Shown here piece by piece: positions 9,710 through 54,924 of a DNA stretch of 64,000 nucleotides. The translations under genes were made by a program, and so were the position numbers. This DNA is from Candidatus Parcubacteria bacterium (lineage in GTDB: Bacteria; Patescibacteriota; Patescibacteriia; CAIXNZ01): NCBI GenBank assembly GCA_026395685.1, contig JAPLYG010000016.1, positions 1,035 to 65,034 on the forward strand, in the 5' to 3' direction. The notes under the pieces are model-generated. The model had not been told where the DNA came from. It ran no database searches and worked only from the letters and a program-made list of their open reading frames with translations. Every line of letters starts with the position of its first letter. Position 1 is the stretch's first letter.

Positions 9710-10036
9710 TTGAGGTTCGAGTCCTGCAGCAATAAAAGCTGCTTATTTAGTTGAGATATTCATTATACTACATTAAATTGTTATTGTCAATTAAACACCC
9801 CCAAGTCGAGACTTTTAAATGATTTAATACTATTTCTAAATCTTGACTTTCCAAGGTTTTTTGTATAAAATAAGAATAACTGTTTCTGAATATTTTTAGT
9901 GTTTAATATTCAATATTTCAAAATCGGTGGGCTGGTCGGAGCAGGAAAGCGGTTGAACTATAAATTTATAAGACACGTATCACAATTAACGATATACGAA
10001 ACGAACATCGATACCGATTAACGTTTCACGATTTTT

Positions 10037-10108
10037 TGGGGAGTCGCCAAGTGGTAAGGCACCGCCCTTTGGAGGCGGCATTCATAGGTTCGAATCCTAT
10101 CTCCCCAG
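10037..10108 (+). tRNA. tRNA-Gln (anticodon TTG)
   Basis: Cloverleaf folded by hand; near-identical architecture to E. coli tRNA-Gln (UGGGG...CCCCAG), anticodon loop CTTTGGA. Confidence 0.85.
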
Positions 10109-10205
10109 CCTTCGTTCGCCGTAGCCCTGCTCCGCAGGGCGAAGGCGAACCTTCGCTTCAAAGTTTTGCCGGTACTACGGCGAACTTCGGCTGGTTTAGA
10201 CCAGC
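10106..10205. repeat. Copy A of ~100-nt GC-rich structured repeat (20-bp inverted arms CCAGCCTTCGTTCGCCGTAG / CTACGGCGAACTTCGGCTGG plus internal hairpins), overlapping tRNA-Gln 3' end
   Basis: Direct comparison with copy B at 11183-11285 (~95% identical). Confidence 0.7.
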
Positions 10206-10260
10206 TATATGTGGATATAACTTTCGACAGGCTTCGGCTGGCTCGGGCCAGCTAAATTAT

Positions 10261-10500
10261 ATGAAAATAGTTTATATAATTCAAAGTCAAAAAGACTTCA
10301 GTACTTATATCGGTGTTACTTCTGACTTAGAGGATCGTTTAAAACGCCATAACCATGGCGAAGTTTATACAACTAAAACAAGGATACCGTGGAAAATAAT
10401 TTGCTATTTTACTTTTACTTATAATCAGACCACTTACGATTTTGAGAGGTATTTAAAAACAGGAAGTGGTAGAGCTTTTCTTAATAAACATTTGTTATAA
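10261..10500 (+). CDS. Small GIY-YIG nuclease-domain protein (UPF0213/YazA-like)
   Basis: 'IVYIIQSQKDFSTYIGVTSDLEDRLKRHNHG' matches GIY-YIG signature; the longer track ORF 10036-10500 reads through the tRNA and is spurious. Confidence 0.65.
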   Translation: MKIVYIIQSQKDFSTYIGVTSDLEDRLKRHNHGEVYTTKTRIPWKIICYFTFTYNQTTYDFERYLKTGSGRAFLNKHLL

Positions 10501-10576
10501 TCAATCCACAGGACGTACTCTTAAGCGCACATCTGCTTTATTAATTATCTAAGATTAGTAAATCACTTTTTAAGAA

Positions 10577-10601
10577 AAAGGTTCGATTCCTTCCTGGCCT
10601 T
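10577..10601 (+). other. tRNA 3'-end-like fragment (T-arm AAGG-TTCGATT-CCTT + acceptor-like CCTGGCC) without 5' half
   Basis: GGTTCGATTCC T-loop consensus with no matching 5' acceptor strand upstream. Confidence 0.3.
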
Positions 10602-10638
10602 TCTCTAGACAAATTAATTAAATTAATTCAATAAAACC

Positions 10639-11073
10639 ATGGAATTCTTTATGAGTTTTGAAGAAGATGGCACGAAACCAGAGGATAAATGTGGGGAAAA
10701 GGCTCGAGAAGCAAGGATTGCAGTTGAGCCAAAGATTATAGATCTTGTAAAAAATCGAACATACAGCTCAATTATTCATAGAATTGCTATTATACCTGTA
10801 ATATATAGTCAAGAACTTTTAATAAAATTTCCTGCTCCTGAAAGAAAATACATTTCACATAAAAATGGTTTTGCTGATTTTCGTTTGTACGTTGACTATG
10901 AAAAATTTATTAATACCTCAGATGATGGCAGAGTTAAGCTTTTGTTAAAAAATATAATTGATTCAATAAGAATAATTTCAGCACGTCTTAAGAAAGATAT
11001 TAAGGGTGAAGAACTCGAAAATGATATTTTATCTCTATTTAATTATAATTACGAACAACTAAATGCTGTCTAA
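10639..11073 (+). CDS. Hypothetical protein (144 aa) inside repeat-bounded module
   Basis: ORF with upstream AT-rich region; no recognisable motifs. Confidence 0.4.
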   Translation: MEFFMSFEEDGTKPEDKCGEKAREARIAVEPKIIDLVKNRTYSSIIHRIAIIPVIYSQELLIKFPAPERKYISHKNGFADFRLYVDYEKFINTSDDGRVKLLLKNIIDSIRIISARLKKDIKGEELENDILSLFNYNYEQLNAV

Positions 11074-11182
11074 ATTGAAACCGATTTTTATTTTCGGTGG
11101 CAAAATATGAGCTTTTAAATACGAGGATGCGGAAATGTCGTGAGGAATCACTGAAAAAAGTTCTAACAACGTCCATCCTGGG

Positions 11183-11285
11183 CAGCCTTCGTTCGCCGTA
11201 GCCCTGCTCCGCAGGGTGAAGGCGAACCTTCGCTTAAAAATTTTGCCGGTACTACGGCGAACTTCGGCTGGCTTTGGCCAGCCAT
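11183..11285. repeat. Copy B of the ~100-nt structured repeat
   Basis: See copy A; ends with GGCTGGCTTTGGCCAGCC hairpin. Confidence 0.7.
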
Positions 11286-11463
11286 AATTTTAAGCTCTGC
11301 TTGGTGTAAAAAGTCGTCCTCGTTTTGAGGGCGATTTTTTAAAACAAAAAAACACCCGTTTTGATGGTGTTTATTTTTATATAAACAGTAATAGTTAATA
11401 ATCCCTCGGTAAACAGTGGGGGGTGGTTAAATGATATAAATCATTTGCCCCCACAAAAATAAA

Positions 11464-21973: not shown

Positions 21974-22066
21974 ATAATTTTGATGCTATTTAACTATTAA
22001 TTAATTATATCAAATATTACAAATTAATTATACTAAAAAAGATTGCCAGTTTTGGCAATCTTTTCT

Positions 22067-22195
22067 TGGTGACCCGGCCTGCCTTCGCTTCCTCCTACGC
22101 CAAGACTTATGCGGACAAGAAAGCTTCGGCAGACAGGCTGGGGCTCGAACCCCCGCCTTCATCCCGCGTTGCGGAATTTCGGCGGGCAGGCAGGA
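22067..22195 (-). ncRNA. tRNA-Lys-derived degenerate element: shares ACCA, acceptor 3' strand, T-loop and downstream terminator with tRNA-Lys but has ~60 nt inserted between T-arm and acceptor and no matching 5' acceptor strand
   Basis: 45-bp block (22034-22078) identical to 22226-22271; 17-bp ggctggggctcgaaccc shared; cloverleaf cannot be completed. Confidence 0.4.
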
Positions 22196-22259
22196 CTATT
22201 CTTATTTTGATTGAAGCAGAGGGTCTAAAAAAAGATTGCCAGTTTTGGCAATCTTTTCT

Positions 22260-22335
22260 TGGTGACCCGGCTGGGGCTCGAACCCAGGACCCTCTGCTTA
22301 AAAGGCAGATGCTCTACCGACTGAGCTACCGAGTC
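22260..22335 (-). tRNA. tRNA-Lys (anticodon TTT), CCA encoded
   Basis: Reverse complement folds as GACTCGG-TA-GCTCAGTCGGTAGAGC-...CTTTTAA...-TTCGAGC-...CCGGGTC-A-CCA. Confidence 0.85.
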
Positions 22336-24674: not shown

Positions 24675-27098
24675 CTATTTGGTATTGGCCATTAGATGAA
24701 AATAAGGCGGACGATTTTTATAGCGTTTAATTGCCAAATACATTATTTCTTCAATAAACTGCCCATAATCTTGCCCGGTTAATTCTGCACAATTGGGCAC
24801 GCAATCACCCATATTGATTGAAGGGTTGGGATTTAATTCCAAAACATAAGGGTTGTCATCTTTGTCTACGCGAATTTCTACCCGGCCATAATCATGACAG
24901 TCTAGAATATTGTATGTATCCAAAGCCATTTCGCCCAATAATGTCTCTAACTTTTTACTGATATTGCGTACCGGACGCTGAACAACAATCCCCATCTTTT
25001 CTGCAGAAATATCCGGGGAAAATTTAATATCATGGGTGTAAATGTGCCATTGTCCCTGAGTCATGTCTTTAAAAATTGAGCGGGATAAGGGTAAAACCTT
25101 CAAATCATTTTCTTCACTTCCCAAAATTGAAACATCATATTCATCGCCTTCTATATATTCTTCAATCAAAGCCGGCGAGCCTAAGTCGATAATTACTTTT
25201 TTCAGTTGTTTAGTTAGCTCTTCAGTATTAGTCACAACCGACTCATTAGTAATGCCGATGGAATTATCGGTATTTGAAGGCTTAACAATCAGCGGATAAC
25301 GCAAATTCTGATCAATTTCATCGTCCATTGAATAGACATAATCCCATTTGGGGGTTGGAATGCCATGAAAAGCCAATAACTTTTTAACTCTAATTTTATC
25401 AATACATAAACTTAATGTTGACGGATTCGAACCAGTATAAGGTATTTGCAATATATCCAGCAAGGCGGCGGCATGCGGTTCCAGCAGACTGGAATCATTA
25501 ATCCTTTCACAGACATTAAATACCAAATCCACATCGCTTTCACTTAATTCCTTAAAAGCTTTCTGAATATTATTAAAATCAAAAAAGGTAACTTTATATC
25601 CCCGATCCTTTAAAGTTTTTTCTATATTGCGTCCGACTGACATCAAATCAGCATTGACCAAATTTTCCCCTTCTTCAAAAATATTACAGGCTATGCCTAC
25701 GTGCAATTTCTTTTGTTCAGACTTAGACATCCTTCTGATTTTTTCAATTCTGGCCGCCCGAACAAATAAATCAGGTTTAATAGCTGCTAAAGAAAGACTA
25801 TTTTTTCTGGAAGTTTTACCAAAAGAAGATTCTGGGGCAAACTTTGCCACTTCAAATTTTACATATTTCATCGCCTCTCTCAGATTATCCTGAGCGTCAA
25901 GCAAGCTGTAGCCTGAAGCTGTAATCCAACCCAAATTATCATAGCCTTCAGGAGGAGCAAAAATCGGATCACCTATCTCCTTATAAAAATGCATTTCCCC
26001 GATTGACGGCCATTTTTCAATTTCATAATCAATATTAGCGGAAATCAACACCCCGGAATAATCGGGACGAAAATCCTGACCAATAATATATTTTAAAGGA
26101 TTGTCCGGTTTTTTTATTTTAATGAAGTAACCCAAAGCAACTTTAACCGCATACTCAATCAAATCTACGCCCCAACAGCCTTTAATATAGGAGTAAATAT
26201 AATCACCGCCCATACGCAGATTAATTTCAATTGGCACCGGGCCATGAGGGGTGGATTTTGCCTCCCAATGCACAATGCCATTTTGCAAGCCCAGTTTTTC
26301 CAATGTTTCTTCAGCCTGCTCAAATAATTCCTGCTGTTGCAAAGCTGGCAAACTTGAAGGGATTGATTGCCCAACTTCTACAAAAAATGGCTCCTGCGTC
26401 TGAAAATTATCAGAAATAGACCAAAATTTTACTTTGCCGTTCTGGATAATAATATCAATATCGACTTCATCGCCGTCAATATATTCTTCCACGAAAATAT
26501 CCAGGCCGTCAGCCAAAGCGCTTTCAGTCGTAGTCGAAATATTTTTTTTAATATAATTGTAGGTATTTGCCAAATCATCCTTGCCATTTACCTTGATAAC
26601 AAAAGCGCTGGAAGCGCCATAAGCCGGCTTAATTACTACAGGAAATTTAAAATCATCAGGCAAATTTTGAATTTCAGCCACTGATTTCAGTAAAACATGC
26701 TTTGGCGTAGCAATACCGTTTTGTTCGCAAAAATCCCTGAATAAATATTTATTCCTGACTTTTTTGGCAATATTATAAGGGATGCCTACCCAATTAAATT
26801 TATCAGCAATTTTGGCAGTCAATAAAACATCATCCTCCCAAAAAGTTACCACGCCGCTAATCTTAACTTCCGGATTACTGGCGATAAATTCCTTAATTGC
26901 GTTGATGCATTCAGTCTGATTGGTATTATCCGCCAAAATCCAATGATCAATATATGGCGCTGCCCAATTTTTTTCTTTATTGAGACAAACGACTTTCAAG
27001 CCAAGCCTTTTTAATTTTTGCAGAATAAAACGCTTTTTTATTGACCCGGTATTAACGACCAGAATTGTTTTGTCCTCAAAATTATTTCCGTTTCTCAT
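24675..27098 (-). CDS. Large protein with two tandem ATP-grasp (Ddl-like) ligase domains
   Basis: Two copies of 'G(I)(A/P)TPK...(F/Y)P(V/L)(V/I)(I/V)KP' ATP-grasp cores at ~aa 120-330 and ~aa 560-790. Confidence 0.6.
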   Translation of the reverse strand: MRNGNNFEDKTILVVNTGSIKKRFILQKLKRLGLKVVCLNKEKNWAAPYIDHWILADNTNQTECINAIKEFIASNPEVKISGVVTFWEDDVLLTAKIADKFNWVGIPYNIAKKVRNKYLFRDFCEQNGIATPKHVLLKSVAEIQNLPDDFKFPVVIKPAYGASSAFVIKVNGKDDLANTYNYIKKNISTTTESALADGLDIFVEEYIDGDEVDIDIIIQNGKVKFWSISDNFQTQEPFFVEVGQSIPSSLPALQQQELFEQAEETLEKLGLQNGIVHWEAKSTPHGPVPIEINLRMGGDYIYSYIKGCWGVDLIEYAVKVALGYFIKIKKPDNPLKYIIGQDFRPDYSGVLISANIDYEIEKWPSIGEMHFYKEIGDPIFAPPEGYDNLGWITASGYSLLDAQDNLREAMKYVKFEVAKFAPESSFGKTSRKNSLSLAAIKPDLFVRAARIEKIRRMSKSEQKKLHVGIACNIFEEGENLVNADLMSVGRNIEKTLKDRGYKVTFFDFNNIQKAFKELSESDVDLVFNVCERINDSSLLEPHAAALLDILQIPYTGSNPSTLSLCIDKIRVKKLLAFHGIPTPKWDYVYSMDDEIDQNLRYPLIVKPSNTDNSIGITNESVVTNTEELTKQLKKVIIDLGSPALIEEYIEGDEYDVSILGSEENDLKVLPLSRSIFKDMTQGQWHIYTHDIKFSPDISAEKMGIVVQRPVRNISKKLETLLGEMALDTYNILDCHDYGRVEIRVDKDDNPYVLELNPNPSINMGDCVPNCAELTGQDYGQFIEEIMYLAIKRYKNRPPYFHLMANTK

Positions 27099-49963: not shown

Positions 49964-50210
49964 TTGACAATTTTCTCAAGCTATGCTAGTATACCACTAC
50001 GTCTGGGCAGGCTGATGGCAGACATTGGCTGGGCCGAGTAAGGTCGCCTTGGACCGAGTGGCAAAGCAACAAAGCAAGGCTGCGGTCAAGAAAACGTCGG
50101 AATATCTTGACCTAAGCGAAAAAAGGATCCGGCTTACTCCCTAGGCTTGCCCGGCCTTTGGAGGACCAACATGACAGGGCAACCCCGGGACTGCAAACCG
50201 GGGCTTTTTA
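49964..50210 (+). ncRNA. Candidate ~210-nt structured small RNA with its own TTGACA-17-TAGTAT promoter and CCCCGG...CCGGGG+U-run terminator; identity unknown
   Basis: GC ~55% in AT-rich genome, multiple internal stems (e.g. GGTCAAGA...TCTTGACC), no ORF, no plus-strand gene downstream. Confidence 0.35.
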
Positions 50211-50307
50211 TTTTCTACAAATTTAATGCGAATATACTAAAAACACCCCACAGAGCGGAGTGTTTTTTTGCAACCTCATAAAACTTAATATAACTTCATA
50301 CAACCGC

Positions 50308-53336: not shown

Positions 53337-53754
53337 AGGATTTTTAAAAATTATTAATCAAAAATACCATTTTATTATAACCTATTTTACTAACCGCATC
53401 AATTGTTGATAAGTCTTTTATTTTGCTGTAAACTATTAAAAAACAAATGCCTTTTAAAAATCCATTATTTTAATCCAATTATACTTAAACTCTGAGTAAA
53501 GAGCAACCTCACAAATATAATATACAATAAATGCTTTTATCTTGACAAAATAACTATTTTATGTCGTAAGTCAATATTCGCAAAAAATGACTTGACAATT
53601 ATTTACGAAGTTGCTAAGGTATCATATGGTTTAAATACAGAGGCCAAAGAGGCCGCGTACCTTTTTAATATATATAAGGCAAGGGGAGGCAAACAAAGAT
53701 TCAAAACAGCTCTGCATTGCGGAGCCAAACCGTCTGAAAAAGGAGACCTGACAG

Positions 53755-54924
53755 ATGAAGAAAATCACCGCATTCACGGCCATGGCGGTCATGATTCTCA
53801 TGACCATGCTCTCGGGCTGCACCAAGCCCGCCCCCGGCAACGGCAACAACCCCATCGGCGCCCAGCCCAACGACCCCCGCGCGTCCGAAATGACCGTCTC
53901 GTGGACCTACGACACCCCCGGCTCGCTCAAGTGGGAATCCGGAGACCTGACCCCCATCAAGGACAGCGACGACGGCCTCTGGAAAATGCTCTACGACCCG
54001 GCCGGCGTCAGCCCGACCGCCATTACCCCCGGCTTTCCGCCGGGCTACGTGGCCATCGGTGGTGACGCGATCAACCCGACCTGCAATAACCCGTACAACC
54101 CCGCGTGTCGGACGGACATCTCGTCCAACTGCACCAACGGCGTCTGCACGGCGTCCGTGAATCTGCCCATCGGCTCCTGGAACGGCATCTGGTTCTGGTA
54201 TGATGGTCAGGTACGCGTCGACCACATCACGCTTTCCGCCGGGACCCAGTCCTGGCCGCTCGTCAACTACTCCGTGATCGCCGGCGATACCGCTCCGACT
54301 ACCAATCCGCTGCACCAGTCCTGGGTCGCAGCCTGTGTCCGCATCGACAGACCCACGCCCACGACCATCGACGTCAACCGCGACGTCGCCAATAACGCCA
54401 GGTGCCAGGAAGTGATCTACAACATCGAAATCTGGGCCAACGGCGACTCCAGCGTGAACGTCCTCGACGACAAGTTCGTTCCCTGGAACGGTCTGCAGGC
54501 TCACGAAGGAGACATGAAGATCAAGTCAACGCTTCTGCCTCCGACCGTACAGTCCGGCAGTACCCTATTCCCGAGAATCGTGTGGAACACCAACGCGTAC
54601 ATCCACCGCATCTCGAGCGTGGCCGCTTCGAGTTCCTGGTGGCTCGCCTTCTACAGCCATGACCGGGGCGACACCGCGCCGCCCAATCTGCTGTCCCCGA
54701 TCCACGGCGGCGTGTCCATTCGCACCTACCGCTACGGCGCCGGCTGGGCCATCCCGACCACGCCCAACTGCACCACCGAGCTCCAGAACATGATCAACCT
54801 GAATACGATCAACCCGCTGCTCGAGCCATTCTACGTCCTGCAAGTGACGGGTATCAACACCACGTCCAACTGCGTCACCCAGGGCGTGGACACCCGAAGC
54901 CAGATCTTCGGATTCGCAAATTAG
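53755..54924 (+). CDS. High-GC lipoprotein of unknown function (lipobox LSGC), Cys/Trp/Pro/Thr-rich, compositionally foreign
   Basis: RBS AAAGGAG 9 nt upstream; 'MKKITAFTAMAVMILMTMLSGC' signal; GC ~65% with third positions almost all G/C versus ~33% GC flanks; two hairpins after stop. Confidence 0.6.
   Translation: MKKITAFTAMAVMILMTMLSGCTKPAPGNGNNPIGAQPNDPRASEMTVSWTYDTPGSLKWESGDLTPIKDSDDGLWKMLYDPAGVSPTAITPGFPPGYVAIGGDAINPTCNNPYNPACRTDISSNCTNGVCTASVNLPIGSWNGIWFWYDGQVRVDHITLSAGTQSWPLVNYSVIAGDTAPTTNPLHQSWVAACVRIDRPTPTTIDVNRDVANNARCQEVIYNIEIWANGDSSVNVLDDKFVPWNGLQAHEGDMKIKSTLLPPTVQSGSTLFPRIVWNTNAYIHRISSVAASSSWWLAFYSHDRGDTAPPNLLSPIHGGVSIRTYRYGAGWAIPTTPNCTTELQNMINLNTINPLLEPFYVLQVTGINTTSNCVTQGVDTRSQIFGFAN

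Follow-up and report, generated by a model that had tools for sequence, protein, structure and literature searches.

We analysed a 64-kb stretch of DNA (hereafter the window) from an AT-rich metagenome-assembled genome (about 37% GC) of Candidatus Parcubacteria, in which an intact transfer RNA (tRNA) gene for glutamine is followed by a GC-rich repeat and a gene for a small GIY-YIG nuclease. It is well supported that this repeat is a member of a conserved family of structured elements, tied to the 3' ends of tRNA and transfer-messenger RNA (tmRNA) genes and to one nuclease subfamily. The explanation that we favour, and hold to be rather probable, is that of a small free-standing nuclease cassette, composed of a structured tRNA-trailer element and a GIY-YIG gene for a protein of about 80 amino acids (aa), which resides at tRNA/tmRNA 3' ends on the same strand. 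Its range covers Patescibacteria/CPR (candidate phyla radiation) and probably extends beyond. A literature search returned no description of an arrangement of tRNA/tmRNA end, element and GIY-YIG gene. The window holds one complete cassette (tRNA-Gln, element copy L and the GIY-YIG gene) and a solo element, copy R, 1077 nucleotides (nt) downstream; the element scores below are those of a covariance model, R1, built from six sequences:

10037-10110, plus strand: intact tRNA-Gln (UUG), called by ARAGORN and matched by the Rfam tRNA model (65.2 bits, 10037-10108)
10106-10209, plus strand: core of element copy L, consisting of H1, an A/U-rich linker, H2 and H3 (repeat D1; model R1, 118 bits; covariation)
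10210-10257, plus strand: extra 47-nt terminal module, a linker plus hairpin CTTCGGCTGGCTCGGGCCAGC, in copy L only (repeat D2)
10261-10500, plus strand: stand-alone GIY-YIG protein of 79 aa, UPF0213/Slx1-like, a predicted nuclease (Pfam PF01541)
11183-11286, plus strand: element copy R, solo, with no GIY-YIG gene 3' of it (repeat D1; model R1, 114 bits)
11313-11341, plus strand: intrinsic-terminator-like hairpin GTCGTCCTCGTTTTGAGGGCGATTTTTT that closes the module (by inspection; not in the consensus terminator scan)

A sequence-only reading of this DNA had described a ~100-nt GC-rich structured repeat that begins within the last 3 nt of tRNA-Gln and continues with CC. This description holds: the first 5 nt of copy L are CAG, the end of the tRNA, plus CC, the GC content of both copies is ~60%, against about 37% in the genome, and folding compared with shuffled sequences gave z-scores of -5.4 (copy L) and -6.4 (copy R). 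The second copy, put at ~95% identity by that reading, is a genuine direct repeat, with an identity of 93% over 104 nt (97/104) and its end at 11286. A search of the window for a 31-nt core of the repeat gave two matches and no more (0.00 expected by chance), and L and R are its only close copies, accompanied by one diverged copy. In copy L, H1 comprises an outer stem, a 3x3 internal loop (GUA/GAA) and an inner stem, and H3 is a terminal hairpin, GGCTGG..CCAGC. The terminal-hairpin pattern has three matches in the window against 0.04 expected, the supernumerary one being at 10232-10252, a module overlooked in the first reading, as was the diverged element described below. H3 of copy R together with its U-rich tail scores as terminator-like (11266-11283).

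No Rfam family matches the element at gathering scores in the window and seven further loci, where only tRNA and tmRNA were reported; the best sub-threshold match on the element (E<=10) was DUF3577 RNA, on the opposite strand, with 18.8 bits against a cut-off of 42.6. An exact-pattern scan with CGGCGAACTTCGGCTGGNNNNNNCCAGC gave one chance match, inside a GC-rich coding region, among the GTDB species representatives and zero matches in viral contigs, and the inverted-arm pattern GTTCGCCGTAG N40-60 CTACGGCGAAC found only three unrelated perfect palindromes in the Joint Genome Institute (JGI) metagenomes. A coding function, suggested by a 154-aa open reading frame (ORF) running from the tRNA to the GIY-YIG gene, was rejected as the frame crosses the tRNA itself; it stays open through the element because GC-rich sequence lacks stop codons.

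As the DNA-pattern scans gave chance matches only, related loci were fetched through homologues of the GIY-YIG protein and not through the element. In the fetched loci a stretch of 65-230 nt, rich in GC and in hairpins, lies 5' of the ~80-aa gene and starts, with a gap of 0 nt and on the same strand, at the end of a stable-RNA gene. The genes found directly 5' of the element are as follows:

window: tRNA-Gln
L008: tRNA-Trp
L028: tRNA-Pro
L011-15: tRNA-Ser(gct)
L019-26: tRNA-Met
L017, L018, L033 and the second cassette of L012: tmRNA

Elements of the same architecture as in the window lie directly 5' of the GIY-YIG homologues in five loci (L008, L007, L005, L028 and L032; model R1, 76-97 bits). 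These five stretches share with the window, base by base, a CCTTCG motif, a two-tier H1, an A/U-rich linker (CTTCGCTTnAA..AATTCTG), a second CTTCG and the terminal hairpin H3; the 3x3 internal loop of H1 reads GUA/GAA, GAA/GAA or AUA/GAC in relatives. Where there is no tRNA (copy R, L032, L005 and L007), the preceding 25-30 nt resemble, weakly and by inspection, a degenerate T-loop plus acceptor strand. All R1 hits with E<1e-3 in the window and about 145 kb of fetched loci are linked to a tRNA, a tRNA remnant or a GIY-YIG gene, and some of them are solo elements 3' of tRNAs, e.g. after tRNA-Ser(tga) in a Shapirobacteria locus. The orientation of the element always matches that of the tRNA and the nuclease gene, and a GIY-YIG gene follows the element in at least seven independent lineages. 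Since elsewhere the element sits once between tRNA/tmRNA and GIY-YIG gene, or solo, we regard this gene as a regular partner and not as incidental cargo.

Public gene calls reflect the same architecture. Among the 150 best representatives of 50%-identity clusters of the nuclease subfamily, 67 carry an N-terminal extension of at least 20 aa introduced by the gene caller, and 9 of these 67 translate a tRNA T-arm (GSNP, FES, SSSL), compared with 1.0 +/- 1.0 in shuffles; this count is a lower bound. The excess of T-arm translations among over-extended representatives shows that adjacency to tRNA genes is general. The public calls P0074-P0223 include many spurious extensions that cover the GC-rich leader and at times the upstream tRNA as well (e.g. 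MVEHLLAKEDVASSSLVTRSS), produced because a stop-free leader or tRNA is read as coding; the cassette thus accounts for a frequent error in databases.

Upstream of the element in L005 (230-395) and L007 (200-390), a conserved non-coding region of ~200 nt (GTCTCATTTGTCTCA ... GACCCGAGTGCCTCA) takes the place of the tRNA; it has no match in Rfam and follows an IS3-like transposase fragment in L005. Contig breaks about 500 nt upstream of the gene were considered as a sign of a multicopy element and rejected: the break in L005 lies in this transposase fragment and the ~200-nt region, so that such breaks are no evidence of copy number.

The 79-aa protein, recognised as GIY-YIG in the first reading, matches PF01541 with 51.7 bits (cut-off 22.6, E 1.1e-13). 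An NCBI protein encoded on a 143,279-bp contig of a metagenome-assembled genome is 100% identical to it. A protein search retrieved 71 homologues. Across 26 homologues the catalytic residues Y5, Y16, G18, R26, H30 and E62 show little or no variation, and an invariant FERYLKTGSG motif marks a subfamily that numbers 4551 representatives (50%-identity clusters) at E<=1e-10. The closest sequence matches of known structure are the Protein Data Bank (PDB) entries 1zg2 (2.6e-11) and 1ywl (1.6e-6) and Slx1 (1.4e-6). The AlphaFold2 (AF2) model (pLDDT, predicted local distance difference test, 96.5) shows the predicted order E-E-H-E-H-H, in keeping with a GIY-YIG core; in Foldseek it retrieved 1zg2 and Slx1 at the top and I-TevI much more weakly, with a template modelling (TM) score of about 0.7 and a root-mean-square deviation of 1.6-2.2 A to Slx1. 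Judged from sequence and from this model, the protein belongs to the UPF0213/Slx1-like clade, as a stand-alone type of ~80-100 aa. With UPF0213/YhbQ (1zg2, 1ywl) and Slx1 it shares the best sequence and fold matches, the size class and the catalytic residues, whereas the FERYLKTGSG motif sets its subfamily apart. Slx1 needs Slx4 and a RING domain, both of which are absent here. We know of no described linkage of UPF0213 genes to tRNA 3' ends or to a structured leader, and our literature search found none. NCBIfam and PADLOC returned nothing meaningful for this protein or for the Imm44 protein discussed below. The window has one copy of the GIY-YIG gene; L011, L012 and L013 have two each.

Stand-alone GIY-YIG proteins of the UPF0213/YhbQ type are among the commonest uncharacterised small nucleases, and the subfamily in question comprises thousands of 50%-identity clusters. 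The consistent order of tRNA/tmRNA 3' end, hairpin element and nuclease gene offers a testable idea of the role and the substrate of these enzymes.

The structure of the element was assessed by covariation (alignment A6), which supports to the same degree two folds that exclude each other: each has 93.6% paired cells and seven pairs changed on both sides, compared with 23-47% paired cells in slid controls for both folds. The first consists of the local hairpins H1 and H3. The second has a long-range helix in which X, made up of the tRNA's final bases and CC, is joined to a segment of the element (X'), and in which the 5' arm of H1 is bound by a copy of its partner that lies distally. Farther downstream the tRNA end is copied as X'', with which X' is likewise able to pair. 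X, X' and X'' read CCAGCC, GGCTGG and CCAGC at tRNA-Gln, CCTGCC, GGCAGG and CCTGCC at tRNA-Trp, and CCCCGA, TCGGGG and CCCGAC at tRNA-Pro, i.e., all three change together with the tRNA. X and X'' resemble a duplication of 5-6 nt; X' pairs with both, so RNA helices fit equally. Duplexes that span the tRNA-element junction exceed shuffles in six of nine independent cases (<=11/500), including tmRNA leaders of different sequence. The terminal pair of H3 is G-U in five of seven modules, which would be A-C on the opposite strand and therefore favours an RNA read from the plus strand. In a predicted fold of the whole precursor the tRNA cloverleaf is kept and the element would form a closed domain adjoining the acceptor stem.

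The seven differences between copies L and R are all fold-preserving: one compensatory pair, one G-C to G-U and one G-U to G-C change, the rest in loops and linkers; only 0.08% of random sets of seven substitutions retained the fold energy. These differences argue that both copies are under structural constraint. We thus consider the element a candidate structured RNA/DNA motif with covariation support, absent from Rfam. As a putative RNA it would have features in common with tRNA 3' external transcribed spacers and with the intervening sequences of rRNA excised by RNase III, as these too are structured RNAs in stable-RNA precursors in which, on the predicted fold, a long helix closes the insert. 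It differs from them in leading into a protein gene and in lacking an Rfam match. A bolder interpretation, which we think unlikely, sees in the element a new class of structured RNA, a 3' extension of tRNA/tmRNA, in which X' would pair either with the 3' terminus of the tRNA or with its mimic X'' and thereby act as a switch or guide-like recognition module, the switch linking the state of the tRNA end to the expression or targeting of a minimal Slx1-like nuclease; if true, this would be an RNA-assisted selfish nuclease system for stable-RNA genes, widespread in CPR bacteria.

Some of these features could also be those of a generic dispersed palindromic repeat of the REP (repetitive extragenic palindromic) or MITE (miniature inverted-repeat transposable element) kind, whose flanking of the gene would be coincidental and to which the nuclease would be unrelated. 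The ends of the element form imperfect terminal inverted repeats (arms of 19-20 nt, 85%), the short flanking direct repeat of X and X'' is reminiscent of a target-site duplication and the copy number of the modules is variable. The pairing of REP/BIME (bacterial interspersed mosaic element) with RAYT (REP-associated tyrosine transposase) and IS200/IS605 likewise combine GC-rich hairpin repeats, variable in module number, with a small dedicated nuclease gene that they flank; the nuclease there is of the HUH type and not GIY-YIG, the repeats are dispersed and not restricted to tRNA ends, and the flanking copies in our window are direct, not inverted. Copies at many unrelated intergenic sites, which the first reading had named as the observation that would speak for a mere dispersed repeat, were absent from the 64 kb of the window and the about 145 kb of loci: the two close copies and the diverged one in the window all lie at tRNA ends or remnants. 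The fixed orientation, the presence of the GIY-YIG gene after the element in at least seven lineages and the chance matches in the scans of GTDB representatives and JGI metagenomes also contradict this model, which fails on distribution within the sequence available; it is disfavoured, and we rate it as very improbable.

The bracketing of cargo by copies L and R is not confined to the window. A Shapirobacteria locus has the order tRNA-Ser(gct), element, GIY-YIG gene, tRNA-Ser(tga), element, which is the layout of the window with an intact second tRNA. In L014, one sample of this locus, direct repeats of 133 nt with 98% identity surround a GIY-YIG gene and tRNA-Ser; in L012 tRNA-Ser(tga) is followed by a solo element, and in L016 (358-640; Shapirobacteria-like) tRNA-Ser(tga) lacks a GC-rich trailer and represents an empty site. 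Samples of the Shapirobacteria locus contain different numbers of hairpin modules, the 47-nt terminal module has two copies in copy L and three homologous ones in L032, and L007 and L008 have different upstream junctions. Loci of this kind repeatedly show the repeat-bracketed arrangement, and since it is found again in an unrelated lineage (L014), repeated recombination at these sites is plausible.

The sequence-only reading had likened the repeats to attL and attR and thought of a decayed or satellite integrative element, or of a miniature element mobilised in trans; on this model an integrase would have acted at the 3' end of tRNA-Gln. Direct repeats that start at a tRNA 3' end and bracket cargo, the typical accessory gene Imm44 as part of this cargo and the tRNA 3' remnants would all agree with such an origin, and the anchor, the repeats around accessory genes and the remnants are shared with tRNA-targeting islands. 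The module lacks an integrase, as that reading had observed, and we found no recombinase gene within about 3 kb on either side. L/R identity begins only 3 nt inside the tRNA and covers no tRNA 3' segment; what is repeated is the adjoining covarying structured element of 104 nt, normally single and located 5' of a GIY-YIG gene, in a unit of about 1.2 kb. Structure-preserving differences between copies are, moreover, unexpected of passive att scars. We consider the att interpretation quite improbable. Of the insertion history proposed with it, the anchoring at tRNA 3' ends, the remnants and the recurrent bracketing stand, and attachment sites of an integrase do not.

Two further observations concern Shapirobacteria and related loci. 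In L016, the last 16 nt of the second tRNA-Ser are duplicated downstream, and a GC/purine-rich insert of ~80 nt separates the duplicate from a T-loop fragment. The leaders in Shapirobacteria (L012, 9931-10452) are built of 21-nt tandem units (CGCCTTCGNCTNGNCGAAGTC...) in six copies, and their number differs between samples of the same locus.

Putative remnants of tRNA 3' ends accompany the elements of the window, among which is a diverged third one:

9714-9742, plus strand: orphan T-loop motif GGTTCGAGTCC with a terminator-like hairpin (9726-9742), about 300 nt upstream of tRNA-Gln (motif scan)
10577-10601, plus strand: orphan T-arm and 3' acceptor-like fragment GGTTCGATTCCTTCCTGGCC (motif scan)
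11158-11182, plus strand: degenerate T-loop/acceptor-like stretch AGTTCTAACAACGTCCATCCTGGG, directly 5' of copy R (alignment A7 and inspection; weak)
22105-22195, minus strand: diverged third element, downstream of tRNA-Lys (model R1, 31 bits, E 3.9e-5)

The T-loop motif GGTTCRANNCC occurs nine times in the window against 0.68 expected: five times in tRNAs, three times as an orphan (9714, 10580 and 22141), always beside an element, and once, at 25423, inside a coding region, an occurrence taken as chance and not retained as a remnant. The stretch at 9714-9742 is possibly the remnant of a tRNA 3' end. The fragment at 10577-10601, a tRNA 3' fragment in the first reading, does carry the T-loop motif (GGTTCGATTCC); neither ARAGORN nor the Rfam tRNA model calls it as a tRNA, it does not match the acceptor strand of tRNA-Gln, and its T-arm 14-mer is identical to the T-arm of tRNA-Trp in L008. 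The stretch before copy R resembles, weakly and by inspection, the one upstream of the L032 element. At the third element (22035-22335, minus strand), the 3' end of tRNA-Lys is duplicated exactly and interleaved with the element, in a part of 17 nt (22136-22152; T-loop/T-stem) and a part of 44 nt (22035-22078; acceptor, CCA and terminator). An H1-like hairpin precedes the duplicate, and a GC-rich insert of 58 nt splits it after CCCCAG|CC, a junction with the sequence that is found at tRNA-Gln too.

Such remnants recall a phage system. In the tRNA arrays of phages, the free-standing GIY-YIG enzyme SegB cleaves the T-loop motif RAWTSGAAC and brings about microhomology-based duplication of segments (PMC13096335). 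In the SegB/Seg-type systems of T-even phages, as in the window, the GIY-YIG gene is intergenic and lies within or beside tRNA genes; T-loop-bounded tRNA remnants and repeat-bracketed segments around the gene add to the likeness. SegB, an enzyme of about 220 aa, has an added DNA-binding domain, whereas the window protein is a bare catalytic domain of 79 aa, nearer to UPF0213/Slx1 than to I-TevI; it is further a phage enzyme, whereas the window belongs to a cellular CPR genome with a conserved structured GC-rich leader, and homing here is a proposal.

A serious rival to the nuclease cassette is a host-serving, non-mobile module, in which the element is a 3' trailer that aids processing, stabilisation or termination, the nuclease is a domesticated housekeeping enzyme of DNA repair or RNA processing, expressed from stable-RNA operons by coincidence, and the second copy results from local duplication. 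In three Portnoybacteria-like genomes (L017/L018/L033, 8978-10800) the order SmpB, tmRNA, GC-rich leader, GIY-YIG gene, infC, rpmI, rplT is conserved, with proteins 84% and leaders about 90% identical between L017 and L033 and the protein under purifying selection. The nuclease gene ends 12 nt before infC, so that co-transcription with a core translation operon is possible. This synteny, the strong conservation of the catalytic core across thousands of clusters, the solo elements after tRNAs, the structural constraint on both copies and the terminator-like hairpin that ends copy R are all what a resident trailer would lead one to expect. Such a module accounts poorly for the two cassettes of L012, which sit at different stable-RNA genes, for the use of different tRNA species by different lineages, and for the polymorphism in presence/absence and module number at a single locus. 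Only two of the five tRNAs in the window carry the element, and next to the elements one finds chimeric remnants of tRNA 3' ends as well as partial tRNA duplications that are exact. On balance we hold the host-serving explanation to be rather unlikely.

Several points weigh against the mobile nuclease cassette itself. The covariation comes from six sequences (about five lineages) only, and the association of element and nuclease was measured from the protein side only, which introduces an ascertainment bias. The 79-aa protein consists of the catalytic domain (residues 1-79) and lacks the DNA-binding domain that proven homing enzymes possess. Among the fetched loci, none from a close relative showed the same tRNA locus without the cassette. 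The conservation of the tmRNA-linked cassette between L017 and L033 fits a stable, possibly domesticated resident as well as a selfish one. A terminator and a TATAAT box between element and gene in L032 indicate that co-transcription is not universal, and a distant homologue on a viral contig (GIY-YIG profile search, 38% identity) has a short hairpin only, with neither a tRNA nor a full element.

For the nuclease cassette, which we favour nonetheless, we infer the following course of expression and movement. The cassette would be transcribed by read-through from the tRNA promoter; a promoter scan found no promoter-like site on the plus strand between the tRNA and the GIY-YIG gene of the window. 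The element may fold as an autonomous domain beside the acceptor stem, allow processing to release the tRNA and serve as 5' leader of the nuclease mRNA, and competition of the X:X' helix with the X':X'' hairpin could couple tRNA folding or processing to expression. Direct repeats could arise from recombination between element copies, either by homologous or double-strand-break-repair-driven duplication or by integration of units of element and gene. The structure-specific nuclease may stimulate this recombination by cutting element hairpin/cruciform DNA or tRNA-gene DNA, and, if the analogy with phage SegB holds, such events would have left the T-arm remnants as scars. The same clade offers a parallel: rRNA genes of CPR contain insertions that encode GIY-YIG proteins and belong neither to the group I nor to the group II introns (Tsurumaki et al. 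2024, PMC11270868). Both cases place GIY-YIG ORFs within stable-RNA transcription units, but those insertions are inside 16S/23S genes, whereas the cassette adjoins the tRNA/tmRNA 3' end. The cassette suggests that, in streamlined CPR genomes, small-scale plasticity has its hot spots at the ends of tRNA genes, with partial tRNA duplications, capture of cargo such as Imm44 and variable hairpin arrays.

The cargo gene in question lies between the tRNA fragment and copy R:

10639-11073, plus strand: gene for an Imm44-family immunity protein (Pfam PF15571; NCBI start 10651, 140 aa)

This is the 144-aa ORF in which the first reading saw no recognisable domain; residues 1-130 match positions 1-126 of the 126 of the PF15571 profile (4e-13, 50.2 bits against 25), and a 100% identical NCBI protein, P0001, is named Imm44 family immunity protein. 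The protein is rare, with two matches in a protein search, the other homologue adjoining an IS630-type transposase. With no toxin partner nearby, Imm44 is an orphan immunity gene, most readily understood as cargo that was captured. Between 7.2 and 14.1 kb the ORFs encode a putative anti-sigma protein, a sigma factor, a DEAD-box helicase, the GIY-YIG and Imm44 proteins, small and membrane proteins, FtsX and FtsE.

Two regions of unusual composition were noticed farther along the window. An ORF of ~1.2 kb (53736-54923, plus strand) with 62-78% GC, against 37% in the genome, is followed by a terminator; its N-terminus (MKKITAFTAMAVMILMTMLSGC...) resembles the signal of a lipoprotein, and the ORF seems to be a foreign gene of recent acquisition. 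A GC-rich non-coding stretch of 224 nt (49988-50211, plus strand), which has no Rfam match at gathering scores, ends with a terminator-like hairpin and is a candidate for an unannotated structured RNA.

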